A stretch of DNA of 8,480 nucleotides, taken from the IMG/VR virus record IMGVR_UViG_648276668_000009, positions 1 to 8,480 of that record; one strand, 5' to 3'. This stretch comes from a virus. Lineage: Duplodnaviria; Heunggongvirae; Uroviricota; Caudoviricetes. The notes beneath the pieces were generated by a model. That model searched no databases, was not told the DNA's origin, and was given only the letters and a program-made list of their open reading frames with translations. The position numbers and the translations under genes were made by a program. Shown here piece after piece: positions 1 through 8,480 of this stretch. Within the stretch, counting starts at the first letter, position 1, and each line of letters opens with the position of its first letter.

Positions 1-56
1 ACACCGTTTCGTTACCGGACAGTGCGATCCCGCCAGGCTTCAGGGGGTAACTGACC

Positions 57-803
57 ATGAAAAATATTGCGACAGGCGGCGTTCTTGAACGTATCCGCAG
101 ACTGGCTCCGTCACATGTAACCGCGCCATTCAAGACGGTGGCGGAGTGGCGTGAGTGGCAACTTTCCGAAGGCCAGAAACGTTGTGAGGAGATCAACCGT
201 CAGAATCGTCAGTTGCGGGTGGAAAAAATTCTGAATCGCTCTGGCATCCAGCCATTGCACCGCAAATGCTCGTTTTCGAATTACCAGGTGCAGAACGACG
301 GTCAGCGATACGCGTTGAGCCAGGCGAAATTCATCGCCGATGAACTGATGGTCGGGTGTACAAATTTTGCGTTCAGTGGAAAACCTGGTACCGGAAAAAA
401 CCATCTGGCGGCGGCTATCGGGAATCGCCTGCTGAAAGACGGTCAGACAGTGATTGTGGTTACCGTGGCTGATGTTATGAGCGCCCTGCACGCCAGCTAT
501 GACGACGGGCAGTCAGGCGAAAAATTTTTGCGGGAACTGTGCGAAGTTGATCTGCTGGTTCTTGATGAAATTGGTATTCAGCGCGAGACGAAAAACGAGC
601 AGGTGGTACTGCACCAGATTGTTGATCGCCGGACAGCGTCGATGCGCGGCGTGGGAATGCTGACAAACCTGAACTATGAGGCCATGAAAACATTGCTCGG
701 CGCGCGGATTATGGATCGCATGACCATGAACGGCGGACGCTGGGTGAATTTTAACTGGGAGAGCTGGCGTCCGAATGTCGTCCAGCCAGGAATTGCGAAG
801 TAA
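57..803 (+). CDS. ydaV: DnaC-like replicative helicase loader (IstB-like AAA+ ATPase), phage replication protein
   Basis: Seen: 248-aa ORF, ATG at 57 preceded by GGGGG (44-48). Walker A '[15 protein letters not shown]' and Walker B 'DLLVLDEIG' in DnaC/IstB arrangement. From memory it closely resembles Rac prophage YdaV; the symbol is recalled, not verified. Confidence 0.85.
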
Positions 804-825
804 TTTTTACCGGGAGAAAAATTTA

Positions 826-1587
826 ATGGAGACTGTTTTTGACGCACTGAAAGCAATGGGAATAGCCACATCCATAGAACTTGCTGCGCGACTTGATATC
901 AGTCGTGAAGAAGTGCTGAACGAACTATGGGAACTGAAAAAGGCTGGTTTTGTTGATAAAAGCGCGTACACCTGGCGTGTGGCTGATAACAACGTTCAGC
1001 AGGAACAGCCAGCGCAGGCAGAACTGCCGGAAGAAACCACCACAGCAACAGTAGCGAAAATCTCAGAGTGCGATTTAACCGCGACGATTGAACAACGCGG
1101 ACCACAAACGGCTGATGAGCTGGCTACATTGTTTGGTACCACATCACGCAAAGTGGCTTCAACGCTGGCAATGGCAATCAGCAAAGGTCGTCTGATTCGC
1201 GTAAATCAGGGCGGTAAATTTCGTTACTGCATACCGGGCGATAATTTACCAGCAGAGCCGAAAGCAGCATCGGTAGCGGAAACTGATGGTAAGGCCTTTC
1301 CTCAGACCGCAGGTGTCGCGTTACCAGTACAGGAGGCTGCAACACAGGAAGAAATTAAAACAGATACTATGGGGGACATTGTGCAGTCACTACCATCGTT
1401 CACTGAAACGCGAGCCAATGACCTGATTTTACCATCGCTGCATATGGCAAACCGCGAACTGCGCCGGGCGAAAAGTCATGTCCAGAAGTGGGAGCGAGTC
1501 TGCGCCGCGCTGCGTGAGCTGAACAAGCACCAGGATATTGTTCGACAGATTACGGATTCTTACCGCCGTGTTGCATCGGAAAAGTGA
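826..1587 (+). CDS. Prophage DNA-binding protein with two tandem winged-helix-like repeats (DUF1627-like, YdaW-like position)
   Basis: Seen: ORF track frame 775-1587; I prefer ATG at 826 (METVF...) because GGAGA at 813-817 sits 8 nt upstream and 775-825 overlaps the preceding gene. Two similar segments, '[32 protein letters not shown]' and '[33 protein letters not shown]', suggest duplicated wHTH domains. Family assignment is from memory. Confidence 0.6.
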
Positions 1588-1602
1588 TTGCCGGAGGCGC
1601 TT

Positions 1603-2025
1603 ATGGCAAAAGTATTTACACAAGAAGAGCGGGAAAAAATTAAAGGGCAGGTGGTTGAACTCGTGCGCCAGAGCGGTCGTGAGATGTTACGGCAACTGGA
1701 AGCTAAAACAGGCGCGACAAGATATCTGATGAGTGTTCTCGCCAGAGAGCTGGTTGCCAGTGGCGATGTATATAACTCCGGCTACGGGTTATTCCCGTCA
1801 GAACAGGCTCGTAAGGATTGGCAAAATGCCCGCAAAAAACTATCCAGGGCAAAGGTGAAGAAACCATCTGTGGTTGATCCTGACCTTATCTGGTCATTAC
1901 CTGACGGAGAAATACGTCGCTACGACAGGAGTATGAACATAATCTGTCACGAGTGCCGGAAGAGTGAAGTTATGCAGCGTGTATTAGCATTTTATCAGGG
2001 AAATGTTCGGTATTTATTGAAGTGA
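1603..2025 (+). CDS. Hypothetical prophage protein (about 140 aa), function unknown
   Basis: Seen: ORF frame 1588-2025; ATG at 1603 preferred, with GGAGG at 1593-1597 and a 5-nt spacer, just after the upstream stop at 1585-1587. Basic C-terminal half with a CxxC motif. E. coli-like codon usage and GC. Confidence 0.55.
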   Translation: MAKVFTQEEREKIKGQVVELVRQSGREMLRQLEAKTGATRYLMSVLARELVASGDVYNSGYGLFPSEQARKDWQNARKKLSRAKVKKPSVVDPDLIWSLPDGEIRRYDRSMNIICHECRKSEVMQRVLAFYQGNVRYLLK

Positions 2026-2243
2026 TGATATTAGAGTGGATCAGTTCATATGAGAATTGACATTTCTGCGTCATAGAGTGAACCACTAGTGGGGCTATTA
2101 GTTTTATCCCTCAAGCCGAAGTTGAAAATCTGACCATACGTTTATCTTAAGAAAGTATTTCACCTCTAATCGCCAACCAAAAATCTTGTTAAATTTCGCG
2201 CCGTTTAGAGGTGAGGTTAATAGATTTTGATTACCTGACCACC

Positions 2244-3122
2244 CTAGAGTGTAGATATAAAACGTTGATAGTGCCTAAGCACCTTAGAAGACATAAATAA
2301 ATTTGGGTTAGTCATGAAGCAAGTCATGGCAATATTTTTTAATGCATTAAAATCAATATTGCTCTTGGCATTAGAGTGTTTTTTGCTCATTGTGAGTGTT
2401 AATTTAAGCACTAAATACTCCAAAAAATGGCCCTGGATTATAGAGAAACTTTCGAACTTGTTATTTTTGATATAATCAATTGCTTCCTCCTTGGTCACTA
2501 TTCCATTAGCTTTTTGCACTAAACGTTCAAATTCTATTTTGGAAATGCAGTGTGGGAGTGATGTATCAACATTGATTCCAAGTTTTCCTCCTTTGTCCGA
2601 TATCTTAAATAAAAAACTTCCTTTTTTTAACATCAATATGTTAAGCTTATAAAGTAGTGATAATCTTCTTACACTTTTGCGAAGTGTTTTTATCAAATCA
2701 TCATTCGCGGAAGCATTATTCATTGTAAGTAATGAAATCAAGTGCACACATAATTTTTTGCTCCAGAAATCATTTTCCCAACTGTATCCTTTAGTGAAAA
2801 AAATATTTCTAGAATTAATTCTATTTCCAAGTATATCTACATAGTCCCTGTCGACAATAACAAATTGATTACCTATGTTTTCAGCGACTATTTTGTCATG
2901 GTAATTAAGAGCATCTCTTTTGCTTCCTGCAATGTTAATTTTTACTTTTTTGCTAGAAAAAATATTAAACAGCGTTCTATAGAACTTTATGTCGTAGAGA
3001 TCATTATCTGGAGTGGCCGCTTCAGTTAAATCACTCACTTTCCCCTCAATGTAAATGATTAGATCTACATCATGGAAATGATGAATGGATGACAAACCAC
3101 TATTAGTCCTTGTAAAGGTCAT
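2244..3122 (-). CDS. TOPRIM/DUF4435-like nuclease effector, candidate AriB-like partner
   Basis: Seen: 292-aa ORF, ATG at 3120-3122 overlapping the upstream stop; GAGGA SD inside the upstream gene's 3' end. N-terminal '..DLIIYIEGKVSD..' (Glu26) and 'FVIVDRDY' (D91-x-D93) fit a TOPRIM Glu + DxD signature. Size, order and coupling to the ATPase match AriA-AriB as I recall it. Confidence 0.7.
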   Translation of the reverse strand: MTFTRTNSGLSSIHHFHDVDLIIYIEGKVSDLTEAATPDNDLYDIKFYRTLFNIFSSKKVKINIAGSKRDALNYHDKIVAENIGNQFVIVDRDYVDILGNRINSRNIFFTKGYSWENDFWSKKLCVHLISLLTMNNASANDDLIKTLRKSVRRLSLLYKLNILMLKKGSFLFKISDKGGKLGINVDTSLPHCISKIEFERLVQKANGIVTKEEAIDYIKNNKFESFSIIQGHFLEYLVLKLTLTMSKKHSNAKSNIDFNALKNIAMTCFMTNPNLFMSSKVLRHYQRFISTL

Positions 3123-4402
3123 TTGAGAAATTCCTCTATTTTTATAAGGTATTCTTGTCTTTTTCCTACAATATCAGGAGAGTGTGTTGCAAATATTATT
3201 TGGGCATTTGGGTTTATTTTTGATATTGATTCTATTAGCCCCTCTTGCCAGTTTACATGAAGAGATAACTCTGGTTCATCTGCTATGTAGATTGTATGAT
3301 GCATCTCTTGTAATAAAGCCTCGCCAAGTATTATTATCATTTGTTTCTCGCCGGATGAAAGGTCTTTTAAAACAACAGATCTCCCATCACGATTTCTTAT
3401 TGATAGTTCATTCTCTTCAGAAACAAAAAAGGTTTTCCTTCCATCAAATAATGTGTTTAGCAATTCAATAAAGTTATCTCTCGGACTGAATATTACTAAT
3501 TTGCTGTTCTGTAATGAACCATATGCACTTACCAACTCATGAGCTCTAATAGAATTAAATAAGACCATGAATTCATCAAAGGAAAGTTCTTCACTGGAAT
3601 CTCTTTTTTTGAGTATGTGCTCAACTCTTTGATAGAGTTCGTTTATTTTTCTGTCATATCTACGCTTTTCTAAGCCTAAAGTTCTAAATACATCACTTAA
3701 AGTTGACTTATCTTCATCAACATTTATTGCTATTGAATTGGTCGGCGAAATGCCTTTATTATCAATGACCGATAAAAAAACGTTTTTTTGAAAATCAATT
3801 GTTTGCTCTGCAAACCTTTGGTCTAGTAAAGAAAAATAGCGAACCATCTTGTTGTTTAATTCAAAAAGCTTAACATCGATAAGCGAGTTGTTTTTGTAGT
3901 TGCCTGCGTTATCATTTGAGAAATTATCTGCTCTGTGGACTGATAGCCACGATAGTTTAAACATTTCTGAAAATATTACATTCAATTCTCTAGAATGCAA
4001 TATATGATTTTTTATATACAGTTTTTTTTCATCGTCGTAATATCTACGAGGAGATTTATTGAACGAGTCGTGAAAAAAATATTCTGCTGGGCTTTGATCT
4101 GTAGTGCTTTTTTTTATAATGTACTTTATGACATTATTACTAATGTCCACTCCTTGTTTGTATACTTCAATTATAGGTTTTTTATTCTTCCCAACTTCTT
4201 TCATTACAATTCTAGCTGAAATGAAATCAATTCTATCTATTTTCTCTATATCACACATTAAAATAGCGGATATGAGGTCAATAATAGTTGTTTTGCCTGT
4301 ACCATTGACACCTATGATGAAATTGAAGTTTTCATTTACTTTAATATTAACATCCTTTTTTCCCCAAAGCCCCTGGATAGCAATGCTGCTGACTATGTTC
4401 AC
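3119..4402 (-). CDS. ABC/OLD-family ATPase, candidate AriA-like sensor of a PARIS-like anti-phage system
   Basis: Seen: 427-aa ORF with GTG start at 4402 and AGGA SD (rc of 4410-4413) 7 nt upstream. N-terminal Walker A 'GVNGTGKT' (aa 31-38); C-terminal ABC-signature-like 'LSSGEKQ', Walker B 'IYIADEPE' and H-loop-like 'ATHSP'. Strongly AT-rich relative to flanks. Stop overlaps the next gene's start by 4 bp (ATGA). Confidence 0.8.
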   Translation of the reverse strand: MNIVSSIAIQGLWGKKDVNIKVNENFNFIIGVNGTGKTTIIDLISAILMCDIEKIDRIDFISARIVMKEVGKNKKPIIEVYKQGVDISNNVIKYIIKKSTTDQSPAEYFFHDSFNKSPRRYYDDEKKLYIKNHILHSRELNVIFSEMFKLSWLSVHRADNFSNDNAGNYKNNSLIDVKLFELNNKMVRYFSLLDQRFAEQTIDFQKNVFLSVIDNKGISPTNSIAINVDEDKSTLSDVFRTLGLEKRRYDRKINELYQRVEHILKKRDSSEELSFDEFMVLFNSIRAHELVSAYGSLQNSKLVIFSPRDNFIELLNTLFDGRKTFFVSEENELSIRNRDGRSVVLKDLSSGEKQMIIILGEALLQEMHHTIYIADEPELSLHVNWQEGLIESISKINPNAQIIFATHSPDIVGKRQEYLIKIEEFLK

Positions 4403-4893
4403 ATTATTTTCCTTGTTTTATAAATGCAGTGATGAATGTGATTTATTCATTTTCGGTTTGAGACTTTTATCAGTTGCATAATTTAAACAATAAACAATAA
4501 CTTTACAAGCACTTAACATAATTTGGTGGAAATATTAGGCGGTTAGATTTCAATTAACAATTAACCTGACGGTAACATCATGATATTGTTGACTTTTGGA
4601 GGTGGGGGGTATCAGAGGCCTGTCTATCTCATTGCTCCATTATAATCAAACGTTTGTTAGTTAGATCGTTATCTACTTTTGCTCATCACTCAAAGCGGAT
4701 TGTCAAAGCTAAATGCACACTGCCTACACAAAGTGTTGGCTTGCGTCTGACTTAGCGTCTTTAAAGAAGTGCTGGTGGTGACGGGTTGTTGTGTCCCATT
4801 TCCACAGAAAAATCAGAGAAACTATAGCGGCTGTAATGGCAATTTATTGTCTTGCTGTTGTTCTTATGGACCGCCTTTCTGATTGATTTCATA

Positions 4894-4922
4894 TTGGCGA
4901 GGTAACGGGAGTTAAGTAGAAT
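4894..4922 (+). promoter_or_regulatory. Candidate hok/mok mRNA promoter (-35 TTGGCG, 17-bp spacer, -10 TAGAAT)
   Basis: Seen: TTGGCG at 4894-4899 and TAGAAT at 4917-4922. Predicted transcript start near 4930 ('GGTGCTTGAGGCTGTCTGCCTC') resembles the 5' end of plasmid R1 hok mRNA as I remember it. Confidence 0.35.
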
Positions 4923-4984
4923 GGCTGCGGGTGCTTGAGGCTGTCTGCCTCGGGCATGAACACCAAAGGCAGATAGAGAAAAGC

Positions 4985-5049
4985 CCCAGTTAACATTATG
5001 CGTCCTGCAAGACGCTTAACATTAATCTGAGGCCACATCTATGCTTTGC
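4985..5049 (-). ncRNA. sok: Candidate Sok-like antisense RNA (antitoxin) covering the mok start region
   Basis: Inferred from the minus-strand promoter at 5056-5085 and analogy to R1 sok (about 64 nt, antisense to the mok translation initiation region). The 3' end is approximate. Confidence 0.4.
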
Positions 5050-5247
5050 ATACGTAGATTAGCCTCTTACGGACCGAAAGGTCAAGGAGAAGCAGGCTAT
5101 GAAGCAGCAAAAGGCGATGTTAATCGCCTTGATCGTCATCTGTTTAACCGTCATAGTGACGGCACTGGTAACGAGGAAAGACCTCTGCGAGGTACGAATC
5201 CGAACCGGCCAGACGGAGGTCGCTGTCTTCGTAGACTACGAATCTAG
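5041..5247 (+). CDS. mok: mok-like overlapping reading frame (modulator of hok translation)
   Basis: Seen: 68-codon ORF starting 58 nt upstream of hok, overlapping it in another frame and ending just before the hok stop. This is the mok/hok arrangement of R1-type loci. Functional translation not provable from sequence. Confidence 0.4.
   Translation: MLCIRRLASYGPKGQGEAGYEAAKGDVNRLDRHLFNRHSDGTGNEERPLRGTNPNRPDGGRCLRRLRI
5056..5085 (-). promoter_or_regulatory. Candidate Psok promoter (minus strand: -35 TTGACC, 18-bp spacer, -10 TAATCT)
   Basis: Seen: rc of 5080-5085 is TTGACC and rc of 5056-5061 is TAATCT. It points leftward across the mok start codon at 5041, as the R1 sok promoter does. Confidence 0.4.
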
Positions 5248-5254
5248 AGAGTAA
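5099..5254 (+). CDS. hok: Hok/Gef-family membrane toxin (type I toxin), HokD/RelF-like
   Basis: Seen: 51-codon ORF, hand-translated as MKQQKAMLIALIVICLTVIVTALVTRKDLCEVRIRTGQTEVAVFVDYESRE, stop TAA at 5252-5254. Hydrophobic N-terminal transmembrane segment and conserved 'RKxLCEV/IR' core typical of Hok. Absent from the ORF track only because it is short. Confidence 0.85.
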   Translation: MKQQKAMLIALIVICLTVIVTALVTRKDLCEVRIRTGQTEVAVFVDYESRE

Positions 5255-5263
5255 GAGTGACCA

Positions 5264-5285
5264 GGCGAGGGATTTCTCCCTCGCC
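5264..5285 (+). promoter_or_regulatory. Stable hairpin in hok 3' UTR (9-bp stem GGCGAGGGA / TCCCTCGCC, loop TTTC), possible fbi-like fold-back element
   Basis: Seen: perfect 9-bp inverted repeat at 5264-5272 and 5277-5285, just after the hok stop. R1-type hok mRNAs carry a 3' fold-back inhibitory element. Confidence 0.4.
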
Positions 5286-5326
5286 ACCTCTGATGAGTCA
5301 GGCATCCTCAATGTACCCACACTTAA

Positions 5327-5349
5327 CCCGCTTCGGCGGGTATATTTTA
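5327..5349 (+). terminator. Rho-independent terminator of hok mRNA
   Basis: Seen: CCCGC-TTCG-GCGGG hairpin (5327-5340) followed by the T-rich run TATATTTTAT. Confidence 0.55.
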
Positions 5350-5722
5350 TCTGTGAATATTTTTATAAAAATAATGCCCACGCACAGCATAAAACAAAAA
5401 GTATTACAGATAAAAAAGGAACGTAATGTGCAGATTTGTTGTTTTCCATATTTACTCACCTTAATATGATTAACACTGATAGGGTTGTTATTTCAGCGGT
5501 TTTCAAATGAGATATTATGGTGATCTGACAAATTTGCATAACATTAAAATTTAATTTGTTTAACCGCTTTTAATAATAAGCGTTGTTTGTATCCCAGCAA
5601 TCTGTTGTTTGGTTTTTATTCCATTAAGGTGGGGGCTTTACACTGGAACCAGTTTATTTATACTTTATACGTCAGCCTGAACAACTGGCATCTGCTGCAC
5701 TGCGCCATCGAGAGATTGAGAA

Positions 5723-6322
5723 ATGGCGCATATACAACTGGTCAAACAAACTTCTTCTGGTTTACTTCTCCCGGCGACGCCGGAGAGTTGCGATTTTCTG
5801 CATCAAATCAAAATAGGTGAGTGGATACACGCAGACTTTAAGCGTGTGCGTAACTACGCATTCCACAAGCGTTTTTTCAAACTCCTGCAACTGGGATTCG
5901 ATTACTGGACTCCGGTCGGTGGGGCGATCACGCCTCGCGAACGAGAACTGCTGTCTGGTTTCGTTGATTACCTGTGCGAATCAGTTGGTCGGGAACACAC
6001 GCCAGCCCTGAGTGATGCCGCAGAGCAATATCTGAATACAGTTGCGACACGCAGAACCCGGGATACGGCATTGCTAAAGTCGTTTGAGACTTTTCGCGAG
6101 TGGGTAACCATTCAGGCTGGATTTTACACCGAACATTTTTATCCGGACGGTAGCCATGGGCGTCGGGCGAAATCCATCGCTTTTGCGAATATGGACGAAA
6201 CCGAGTTTCAGCAGGTTTATAAATCTGTTCTGAATGTGCTGTGGAACTGGATTCTGTTCCGTAAATTTTCCTCTCCGGAACAAGTCGAAAATGTAACCGC
6301 GCAGCTGCTGGAGTTTGCGTAA
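5723..6322 (+). CDS. DUF1367-like prophage nin-region protein (199 aa)
   Basis: Seen: ORF with ATG at 5723 preceded by a GAGA-rich stretch. Its stop overlaps the next start by 1 nt (TAATG at 6319-6324). Sits directly upstream of a YbcO-like gene as in lambdoid nin regions. Family name is from memory. Confidence 0.7.
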   Translation: MAHIQLVKQTSSGLLLPATPESCDFLHQIKIGEWIHADFKRVRNYAFHKRFFKLLQLGFDYWTPVGGAITPRERELLSGFVDYLCESVGREHTPALSDAAEQYLNTVATRRTRDTALLKSFETFREWVTIQAGFYTEHFYPDGSHGRRAKSIAFANMDETEFQQVYKSVLNVLWNWILFRKFSSPEQVENVTAQLLEFA

Positions 6323-6612
6323 TGGTGGATTTACGTAAAGCGGCGCGGGGGCAGATGTGCACCGTCAGAATTCCTGGCTACTGCAATCACGATCCGGAAA
6401 CGTCTGTGCTGGCGCATTACCGACTGGCGGGAACGTGCGGAATAGCGACAAAACCACACGATATGCAGGCGGCGATTGCCTGTAGCTCATGCCACGATCT
6501 AATCGACGGGCGGGTAAAAACCAGCGATTACACCAAAGAAGAATTACGCCTGATGCATGCAGAAGGTGTTTTTCGCACACAAGAAATCTGGAGAAAGGAG
6601 GGATATTTGTGA
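6322..6612 (+). CDS. YbcO-like DUF1364 protein (putative Zn-binding nuclease of lambdoid nin region)
   Basis: Seen: 96-aa ORF 'MVDLRKAARGQMCTVRIPGYCNHDPETSVLAHYRLAGTCGIATKPHDMQAAIACSSCHDLIDGR...' with Cys/His spacing typical of a Zn site. From memory it closely resembles DLP12 YbcO. Confidence 0.8.
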   Translation: MVDLRKAARGQMCTVRIPGYCNHDPETSVLAHYRLAGTCGIATKPHDMQAAIACSSCHDLIDGRVKTSDYTKEELRLMHAEGVFRTQEIWRKEGYL

Positions 6613-7151
6613 TTTACCCAACGAATACAGGAAAAAGCGGAGAACACCTTCGTCTCGCCACGCTGGAAAGTGTCTGGATTCAGGGCAAACTGCGTATGTG
6701 GGGGCGCTGGTCGTATATTGGCGGTGGCAGGTCAGGAAATATGTTCAATCAGTTGTTGGCATCCCAAAAATTGACGAAAACAGCCATCAATGAAGCCCTG
6801 CGCAGAATGAAAAAAGCGGGAATAGAGAAAGCTGAGCTGGAAGCGTTTTTGAGAGAGATGATCAACGGCAAGCAAAAGAGCTGGCTGGCGCATTGTACTG
6901 ATGCAGAGGCGTTATGTATTGATCGAGTCATAAGTGAGGTGCTGGCAGAGCATCCAGGATTGATTTGCATTCTCCGGCAACGCTATGAAGGGCGGGGGAT
7001 GACTAAGCGTAAAATGGCTGAATTGCTACATGATGCACACCCAGAGTGGTGTTTTAGCACATGCGAAAAACGGATTGCTAATTGGTTAGCTGTTGCTGAG
7101 TATGTCCTATATATTCCCATGCGTGAATCATTTGCTGAGAAAATGGCTTGA
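6609..7151 (+). CDS. Putative late-gene antiterminator (Q-like)
   Basis: Seen: GTG at 6609-6611 overlapping the YbcO-like TGA stop (GTGA) with a strong AGGAGG SD at 6595-6600. This start is preferred over the in-frame ATG at 6489, which lies inside the upstream gene. Function is inferred mainly from synteny (hok, DUF1367/DUF1364, then Q, as in Qin), not from a recognised motif. Confidence 0.5.
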   Translation: MIYPTNTGKSGEHLRLATLESVWIQGKLRMWGRWSYIGGGRSGNMFNQLLASQKLTKTAINEALRRMKKAGIEKAELEAFLREMINGKQKSWLAHCTDAEALCIDRVISEVLAEHPGLICILRQRYEGRGMTKRKMAELLHDAHPEWCFSTCEKRIANWLAVAEYVLYIPMRESFAEKMA

Positions 7152-7182
7152 TTTCTTACGTATAAACTGCTTCAATTTCGCT

Positions 7183-7186
7183 ATGC
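7183..7186. repeat. Left copy of 4-bp direct repeat (ATGC) flanking the IS, putative target-site duplication
   Basis: Seen: ATGC immediately left of the IS end (7183-7186) and ATGC immediately right of it (8436-8439). Confidence 0.5.
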
Positions 7187-7194
7187 TGAAGTGG

Positions 7195-8363
<1,169 letters not shown>

Positions 8364-8435
8364 TGGAGCACCTGTGTTGTTCTGAGGTGAGCATATCACC
8401 TCTGTTCAGGTGGCCAAATTCAGTGTGCCACTTCA

Positions 8436-8439
8436 ATGC
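8436..8439. repeat. Right copy of 4-bp direct repeat (ATGC) flanking the IS
   Basis: Seen: see left copy. Confidence 0.5.
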
Positions 8440-8480
8440 TTCGCAAAGCTGTATCGCGAGGCGAACAATCCCACGGATAC

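Follow-up and report, generated by a model that had tools for sequence, protein, structure and literature searches.

Which part of the AT-rich DNA between two conserved phage genes has been acquired, and what does it encode? This question is raised by an 8,480-nt stretch of a Caudoviricetes record (IMGVR_UViG_648276668_000009, positions 1 to 8,480; 'the window' below means this whole stretch), in which two minus-strand genes and a hok/mok/sok toxin–antitoxin locus lie between a Ren-like DUF977 gene and a DUF1367/NinB-like gene. A sequence-only reading of the window had treated positions 2026–5722 as a single accessory island combining a defence operon with a toxin–antitoxin locus. Our analysis leads to a narrower unit: it is highly probable that positions 2135–4678 are a self-contained, horizontally mobile cassette of the PARIS type, encoding the proteins AriA and AriB and lying in a recombination hotspot of Rac prophages, between the Ren-like DUF977 gene and hok/mok/sok. 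The kinds of element involved (PARIS, hok/sok and defence hotspots of mobile elements) are all already known, and current concepts remain unchanged. The odd AT-rich island would turn into a defined PARIS-type abortive-infection cassette with clear borders in a very common E. coli prophage.

Family assignment of AriA and AriB

The cassette (2135..4678, minus strand, ~2.5 kb, guanine-plus-cytosine (GC) content 0.32) consists of a promoter region, ariA, ariB and a 3' hairpin. The gene ariA (3119..4402, minus strand, GTG start) encodes a predicted ABC/SMC-type ATPase sensor of 427 amino acids (aa), and ariB (2244..3122, minus strand) a putative TOPRIM/DUF4435-type nuclease effector of 292 aa. Read directly from the sequence, the ariA stop and the ariB start share 4 nt (ATGA), an overlap by which translation of the two may be coupled. 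In an alignment of three cassette copies a sigma-70-like promoter candidate (TTGTAA, 17 nt, TAAATT; 4480..4508, minus strand) is largely kept, with one substitution per hexamer in the copy of a P2-like prophage (L010); since it stayed below threshold in a consensus scan, it is regarded as a candidate only. An inverted repeat 3' of ariB (2160..2214, minus strand) can form a hairpin with 13-nt arms and a 29-nt loop; the Pantoea-type copy L011 keeps it, one A-T pair being exchanged for G-C by a compensatory change. We consider this hairpin a possible terminator or mRNA stabiliser belonging to the cassette. Homology to the other copies spans 2135–4678, so that the unit takes in about 275 bp 5' of ariA and about 110 bp 3' of ariB.

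For the family assignment we compared both proteins with the original PARIS rule (PMC9122126), in which AriA scores at least 32 bits with AAA_15 or at least 27 bits with AAA_21, and AriB at least 27 bits with DUF4435 (PF14491). AriA of the window lies well above its thresholds (Pfam AAA_21 60.1 bits, AAA_15 58.7 bits), scores 134 bits with the PADLOC AriA model (E = 1.2e-39) against 81 bits with the best PtuA model, and has AriA 8ux9_B as its best sequence match in the PDB (E = 1.2e-14). The Walker A motif GVNGTGKT (31–38, K37), the signature LSSGE (348–352), the Walker B motif IYIADE (371–376, E376) and the H-loop THSP (406–409) align with their counterparts in 8ux9 AriA and are invariant in 65 homologues; in the reference AriA of E. 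coli B185 the Walker A lysine is K39 and the Walker B glutamate E393. When the AlphaFold model (mean predicted local distance difference test score, pLDDT, 83.2) was used for a fold search, the top 15 matches were all AriA chains (E = 1.3e-17 to 1.1e-12, template modelling (TM) scores 0.50–0.68), and retron/Septu PtuA chains ranked next (TM 0.3–0.46). The central part of the protein gave no sequence alignment to B185 AriA. Residues 114–120 (window ~4043–4063, minus strand) form a low-confidence, disordered basic loop, FNKSPRR, at which the AriA family consensus is arginine-rich. The loop shares residue numbers with R116 and R119, the Ocr-binding pore arginines of B185 AriA, which is a positional coincidence of numbering only; possibly it is an analogue of that protein's basic pore loops (PMC11464382).

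AriB is much more divergent. Its sole PADLOC match is the AriB model (E = 1.8e-12, 45.9 bits, profile positions 12–230 of 236), and the protein carries the RefSeq name 'DUF4435 domain-containing protein'. Searches gave no Pfam match even at E = 10 and no NCBIfam match, so the DUF4435 score of the original rule is not reached; the PDB, searched with the single sequence and with a profile of 7 sequences, returned nothing relevant. Because AriB is divergent and has no Pfam, NCBIfam or PDB sequence match of its own, we built its family, with 7 homologues from a first search, 120 from a profile search and 88 in the final alignment. Within these 88 homologues E26, D91 and the YSWEN motif at 113–117 (E116) do not vary, and conservation of D93 is at least 90%; E26, D91, D93 and E116 are the counterparts of the TOPRIM metal ligands E26, D88, E90 and E122 of B185 AriB (PMC11464382). 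Pfam DUF4435 is matched by 39 of the 88 family members. The family profile reached AriB in the PDB only at E = 0.033, in an alignment to 8ux9 AriB that pairs GYSWENDFW with GHSLENYFF. As the sequence searches were indecisive, the fold search settled the assignment: for the AlphaFold model (pLDDT 92.1, predicted TM score 0.89) the only PDB matches at E ≤0.001 were 8ux9_A (9.5e-7) and 8v46_D (3.2e-6), both of them AriB chains, with a TM score of ~0.5 and 12–14% identity.

The gene order agrees with this result. Wherever else we examined the surroundings of an AriB homologue (in a P2-like prophage and in Pantoea, Enterobacter, Pseudomonas aeruginosa and Marinomonas), an ATPase of 425–437 aa is encoded directly 5' of it. 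On sequence, predicted folds and gene order we place the pair in PARIS, as a divergent member, which by homology would combine an ATPase sensor with a tRNA-cutting nuclease. Owing to the low identity, the missing Pfam match and the weak profile match of AriB, its substrate and its trigger could differ from those of B185, and the AriB clade that Pfam DUF4435 fails to detect may differ from B185 PARIS in trigger or tRNA specificity. Surveys that use the Pfam-based rule miss this clade and may undercount PARIS.

The same divergence is what speaks for a different ABC-ATPase/TOPRIM system, of OLD-, AbiL- or Septu-like kind, with another chemistry such as DNA nicking or another mode of activation. 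Such a system would explain why AriB lacks a DUF4435 match and is so distant from the solved AriB in identity and TM score, and AriA does score on PtuA, MADS3 and AbiLi models and on retron PtuA structures as well. However, PADLOC ranks AriA first for the one protein and finds AriB alone for the other, the significant fold matches of the nuclease are AriB chains only, and AriA chains outrank all other ATPases. Split genes in the order ATPase then nuclease, with PARIS-like sizes, and the DUF4435 matches of more than a third of the AriB family (39/88) also argue against it. We therefore regard a system of another kind as unlikely and retain the PARIS assignment.

Borders of the mobile unit and the hok/mok/sok flank

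A sharp drop in base composition had been proposed for the whole interval 2026–5722. By computation the drop is real in the cassette (GC 0.32 versus 0.50) and does not hold for the interval as such, which includes hok/sok at GC 0.498 and an AT-rich stretch, 5342–5722, that is conserved backbone. The backbone genes at 1–2025 have a GC content of 0.508 (0.47–0.53 singly) and the nin/Q genes at 5723–7151 one of 0.491; ariB and ariA have 0.319 each, with 0.317 and 0.285 at third codon positions. Values of 0.381 and 0.36 were found for the edges at 2026–2243 and 4403–4821 and 0.328 for 5342–5722. The hok/sok module (4822–5341) is backbone-like in composition, and hok reaches 0.673 at third codon positions. 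In 200-bp windows the cassette has a mean of 0.317 (standard deviation 0.020) and the backbone a mean of 0.503 (standard deviation 0.041; Mann–Whitney p = 7e-6), and thus the composition is not uniform across the window. Runs of at least six A/T occur 7.5 times per kb in the cassette, 1.4–2.0 times per kb in the flanks (approximately four- to fivefold less densely) and not at all in hok/sok, which bears out the description of the cassette genes as very AT-rich with long A/T runs. It also held that the interval contains only the ATPase/TOPRIM pair and hok/mok/sok, as no other open reading frame (ORF) in it matches a family of known function.

Relatives of the cassette are found in quite different elements. 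Pantoea-type loci (L011 and L021–23) show 85% nucleotide identity over 2,550 bp; one of these copies lies in a Pantoea stewartii island near smpB that carries a Pox_D5 primase-like gene, and its AriA is 94% identical at the protein level. A P2-like prophage (L010) is 80% identical over 2252–4516 and has the cassette between its tail-fibre and sheath genes, where P2 itself has the Z/fun gene. The cassette has ~32% GC in each of the three hosts, compared to 54% in the P2-like flanks and 46% in the rest of the Pantoea-type contig. Neither the Pantoea nor the P2-like copies are accompanied by hok. The homologous proteins are 80–94% identical across species, and no frameshift was seen. Searching with the cassette DNA, we found nothing in 50,697 phage records; in 72,556 plasmid records the sole match was one of 121 bp, to a Nostoc ATPase. 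Among 5,426 complete E. coli genomes, 2026–4700 occurs in two (0.04%). This rarity, and the ~32% GC kept in unrelated elements, support the earlier proposal that the pair was acquired horizontally; cassettes of 80–85% identity in lambdoid and P2-like prophages and in a Pantoea island suggest that these defence genes shuttle between unrelated mobile elements.

The borders were located by local BLAST against the fetched loci. In the left junction (2026..2134), 2026–2065 is common to two Rac variants, and for 2066–2134 there was no match in the Rac loci compared or in the other copies of the cassette. The right junction (4679..4821) leads into sequence that other Rac prophages share, with 4730–4826 being 88% identical to the hok-upstream sequence of two other Rac variants. 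A repeat search found no direct repeats, att-like sites or target duplications bounding the cassette, and the repeats listed near it were rejected as short AT-rich chance matches. In place of limits at 2026 and 5722 the evidence gives ~2026–4821 for the island, with 2135–4678 as the mobile unit.

The module that follows, hok/mok/sok (4822..5341, plus strand, GC 0.50), is a type I toxin–antitoxin locus, and homology to many loci begins at 4822 and stops at 5341. A consensus scan placed a promoter candidate (TTGGCG, 17 nt, TAGAAT) at 4894..4922 on the plus strand, putting the transcript start at 4929, which is the first position of the match to the Rfam sok model RF01794, or hok leader (4929–5101; full-length model, 104.9 bits versus a gathering score of 59 bits). 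On the plus strand follow mok (5041–5247, 68 aa, overlapping the hok start; PHROG 37205, E = 1.2e-21), whose homologue in phage Rac records also bears the name mok, hok (5099–5254, 51 aa; Pfam HOK_GEF 81.1 bits versus a cut-off of 22 bits) and a terminator-like hairpin found by scan (5326–5341). The predicted full-length hok mRNA (4929..5347, plus strand), which includes mok, hok and the terminator, has a minimum free energy of -173.2 kcal/mol (z = -8.28), and its first 12 nt are predicted to pair with the 3' region CCUCAAUGUACCC. For the Sok promoter no minus-strand consensus site at threshold was found in 5040–5120; by eye, a TTGACC/TAATCT pair stands at what we take to be the position of the Sok promoter in plasmid R1, which is a lead only. 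From its sequence the module looks intact. A match to Rfam ceN48 at 4942–5040 was discarded as noise over the hok leader. An ORF of 49 aa antisense to this leader (4889–5038, minus strand) belongs to PHROG families with no assigned function (phrog_7511, E = 6.8e-28) and probably reflects recurrent gene calls over the sok/hok-leader region and not a real protein.

Contrary to the sequence-only reading, this module is not cargo. At GC 0.498, with at least 80% coverage in 3,833 of the 5,426 genomes, and as a right flank that is found in many lambdoid phages as well, hok/mok/sok belongs to the backbone and is the conserved right anchor of a variable slot. Since it is the right-hand flank in most genomes, the pairing of a defence operon with hok/sok, which had been thought possibly unusual, is the rule at this site. 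The module probably helps to keep this part of the prophage stable, and as an addiction anchor its intact edge could guard the slot against deletion. The hok/sok of plasmid R1 excludes T4, a precedent for which a literature search gave no usable citation; by analogy with it, hok/mok/sok may here cause cell death once host transcription is shut off by a phage.

Beyond the terminator lies an AT-rich spacer without a supported gene (5342..5722, GC 0.33), which is backbone in most Rac relatives and 97–99% identical in five Rac loci (L002–L004, L006 and L007). A conserved regulatory element or gene in the spacer was considered and rejected: the identity belongs to a longer tract of 100% identity, 5422–6021, which runs into the DUF1367 gene and for this reason is no sign of an element. 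The ORFs of the spacer had no PHROG match, the antirepressor gene rem was absent by tblastn, and in Rfam only a weak P24 match, far below threshold, was obtained. In some relatives the spacer is a second variable site past the hok terminator, being replaced by rem in phage Rac MN652886 (L012, 5806–6293); strain 222 has a DUF1971 gene in its place (L009, 4760–5657).

The variable slot in Rac prophages

If the cassette were conserved core of these prophages, it should be about as frequent as its flanks. It occurs in 2 of the 5,426 genomes, as against 3,936 for the DUF977 left flank gene and 3,833 for the hok module (each at coverage of at least 80%; ~70%), which contradicts the conserved-core alternative. 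In related prophages the same junctions hold at least 20 other gene sets in rows sampled across the match ranking, a count that leans partly on RefSeq product names under the BLAST places. We examined nine loci directly, i.e. the window and eight other Rac loci, and found PADLOC-recognised defence genes in six of them, the ariAB cassette included. Cargo of the other Rac loci includes Menshen NsnABC (L002), a HEC-06 protein of the DUF262 type next to a TPR protein (L003), an OLD-like HEC-04 nuclease accompanied by a cytosine methyltransferase (L007), IetAS (L008) and a BstA-like KilA-N protein (strain 222, L009). No or only weak PADLOC matches were obtained for a NACHT protein of 752 aa (L004, 2534–4792), for an Sll1717-family ATPase of 689 aa (L005, 2329–4398) and for an extra Q-family antiterminator with three uncharacterised minus-strand genes (L006, 2686–5698), one of which is annotated as nucleoid-associated. 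The NACHT protein, the Sll1717-family ATPase and the three-gene set could include new defence systems. These results uphold the suggestion of a defence hotspot within a lambdoid (Rac) prophage. The orientation of the cassette, described as opposite to the flanking phage genes, is correct for both genes here and is no property of the site: as such it was rejected, since plus-strand cargo was seen in four fetched loci.

Qin-type prophages carry flxA, ydfV and relBE at the same site, and the same backbone occurs in the phage records Rac, Rac-SA53, mEp460, Tritos and HannyBb and in PPompW prophage records with the Paa adhesin. The position, too, is not unusual, as the site is the junction between the Ren-like and NinB-like genes of lambdoid phages. 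Exchange at this junction leaves ragged ends. Left breakpoints were found at 1541, 1920, ~2000–2010 and 2065, right breakpoints at 4822 (the commonest), ~4915–4920, 5072 and 5325; some swaps truncate the C-terminus of DUF977, and a few delete hok. The length of the DUF977/Ren-like gene varies with the cargo in L003, L004, L007 and L008 (378, 423 or 432 nt, truncated in L004), because left breakpoints fall in the last 20–100 nt of this gene. Comparing 4822–7187 with L002–L004 and L006, we observed mosaic identity: 5422–6021 is 100% identical with three loci, the neighbouring 100-bp windows are 83–96% identical, and the 3' region of hok (5222–5321) is 66–72% identical to the other Rac loci. Such stretches resemble tracts of recent recombination on this side of the hotspot. 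Ragged breakpoints and mosaic identity together suggest that cargo is exchanged through homologous recombination within the flanks, with occasional illegitimate joins.

A literature search found no description of this slot as a defence hotspot, which does not establish its absence from the literature. The junction of Ren-like DUF977 and hok/sok in Rac/Qin-type lambdoids may be an undescribed species-wide defence hotspot. Its two flanks offer easy, near-universal handles for mining defence cargo in E. coli, and several cargo sets in the slot are without known defence annotation. This reading of an undescribed species-wide hotspot, with possible new systems among its cargo, a hok/sok anchor and an AriB of differing trigger or tRNA specificity, is tentative, and we consider it rather doubtful.

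The sequence context places the window in the early-right region of an E. coli Rac prophage. Positions 1–7187 are a nearly exact match to the strains HYM1 and T-HYM1, both duck isolates (99.8% for the hok module in one search), where the matching region lies within a prophage that adjoins ttcA and contains intR, xisR, ralR, recET, kilR, sieB, racR and ydaS through ydaV. The order in the window is ydaV (DnaC-like, 57–803), a DUF1627 gene, the DUF977/Ren-like gene as left anchor (1588..2025, plus strand, RefSeq start 1603; Pfam DUF977 E = 4.4e-29, PHROG 142 'Ren-like exclusion protein' E = 1.7e-45), ariB and ariA on the minus strand, hok/mok/sok, the DUF1367/NinB-like gene as the first of the nin/Q module (5723..6322, plus strand; Pfam DUF1367 E = 3.5e-95, PHROG 319 'NinB/Orf homologous recombination mediator' E = 1.9e-68), a DUF1364/YbcO gene, a DUF1133 Q-like antiterminator gene ending at 7151 and an IS3-family insertion sequence. 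The latter (7187–8435) is 94% identical to ISEc52 and inserted 36 bp past the stop of the Q-like gene at a site that is empty in HYM1; its termini are the repeats TGAAGTGG..., and the target site ATGC (4 bp) is duplicated at 7183–7186 and 8436–8439. By this insertion Q could be cut off from the late promoter, helping to immobilise the prophage. No tRNA genes were found in the window. Two other loci (L006 8453–8606, L008 8317–8470) have tRNA-Thr and tRNA-Gly genes ~300 bp past their Q-like gene. As tRNA-Thr(UGU) has been reported as a target of AriB, prophage tRNAs there might matter for PARIS-type defences.

Proposed mechanism, rival explanations and known systems

How could the cassette act? 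In a lysogen, ariAB would be read from its own promoter, against early phage transcription. By homology to B185 PARIS (PMC11464382, PMC12409363), an oligomer of the AriA ATPase would serve as a scaffold keeping AriB inactive, until a protein of an infecting phage, e.g. an Ocr-like anti-restriction protein, bound AriA in an ATP-dependent manner and AriB was released. AriB would then dimerise and cut particular host tRNAs by means of its TOPRIM site (E26, D91, D93 and E116), whereupon translation would stop and the infection would abort; phages carrying their own resistant tRNAs could escape. In B185 PARIS, AriB cleaves the host tRNAs Lys, Thr and Asn (PMC11464382, PMC12409363). As AriB and the central part of AriA are divergent, trigger and target may differ here.

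Several points weigh against a PARIS-type cassette in a Rac hotspot. With regard to the proteins, these are the central part of AriA that does not align to B185, the missing DUF4435 match of AriB, its low identity to the solved chains and the family profile that reaches them only at E = 0.033. With regard to the slot, the count of cargo types depends in part on product names, and direct inspection covered only eight other Rac loci. All steps of the mechanism (expression, complex, trigger and RNA target) are proposed by homology, and the ariAB promoter candidate is below the scan threshold. Furthermore, DNA of 30% GC is often silenced by H-NS in E. coli, so that the cassette may be poorly expressed.

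From the last points one could conclude that the cassette is an inert passenger, silenced by H-NS or decaying, without a current role in defence. A GC content of 0.32 is typical of H-NS targets, no strong consensus promoter was found, and Rac is often defective, to which can be added the IS3-family element that sits 36 bp behind the Q-like gene. On the other hand, both ORFs are intact with their 4-nt overlap, all catalytic and ATPase motifs are kept, the promoter-like block and the 3' hairpin are preserved between copies that are 15–20% divergent, with one compensatory change, and the homologues keep 80–94% protein identity across species with no frameshift seen. We judge an inert passenger to be improbable. 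Least probable, and already refuted, is the single acquired island at 2026–5722 with both the defence operon and hok/mok/sok as cargo: the two do stand next to each other, AT-rich DNA lies on both sides of hok/sok, and a minority of swaps removed hok (L008 with IetAS, 5325) or cut its leader (L007, 5072), but hok/sok differs from the cassette in composition (0.498 versus 0.32) and in frequency (3,833 versus 2 of 5,426 genomes), it flanks many unrelated cargos, the Pantoea and P2-like copies lack hok and 5342–5722 is conserved backbone.

A mobile PARIS-type cassette thus being the preferred explanation, its closest known counterpart is the PARIS system of B185, which is carried in a P4-satellite hotspot (PMC9122126) and whose AriA/AriB structures are 8UX9 and 8V45–8V49 (PMC11464382). 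Like B185 PARIS, the cassette has an ABC ATPase gene followed by a DUF4435/TOPRIM nuclease gene and is cargo of a mobile-element hotspot; both share the Walker A lysine, the Walker B glutamate and the ABC signature in AriA and the acidic site of E, DxD and E in AriB, and the predicted folds match the cryo-EM chains best (AriA) or exclusively (AriB). Differences are the low identity in structural alignments (12–14% for AriB, 16–17% for AriA), the shorter AriA (427 versus 464 aa), the lack of a Pfam DUF4435 match in AriB, by which the original rule misses the system, and the host, a lambdoid prophage and not a P4 satellite.

The slot resembles known mobile-element hotspots in its conserved flanking phage genes and its variable, defence-rich cargo common to unrelated elements. 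It differs from them in its position, the Ren-like/hok–NinB junction of Rac/Qin-type lambdoids, and in having a type I toxin–antitoxin locus as one edge. The same slot of a related lambdoid is seen in Qin of E. coli K-12, where relBE, ydfV and flxA lie directly 5' of hokD (PMC6379469), which shows that the site accepts toxin–antitoxin or defence cargo. There the relBE insertion truncated the mok/sok part (PMC6379469), whereas hok, mok and the leader/sok of the Rac window are intact. Compared to hok/mok/sok of plasmid R1 (RF01794, PF01848), the module has the same 51-aa Hok, overlapping mok frame, sok-model leader, predicted 5'–3' closing helix and terminator, although it is chromosomal, prophage-borne and the conserved anchor of a variable locus. 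Finally, OLD-family, Septu and retron PtuA proteins share with AriA an ABC/SMC-type ATPase head with a helical insertion and a role as sensor or regulator of a nuclease; both profile and fold searches place them behind AriA, and their partner nuclease is an HNH or a fused TOPRIM, whereas PARIS has a separate DUF4435 protein.

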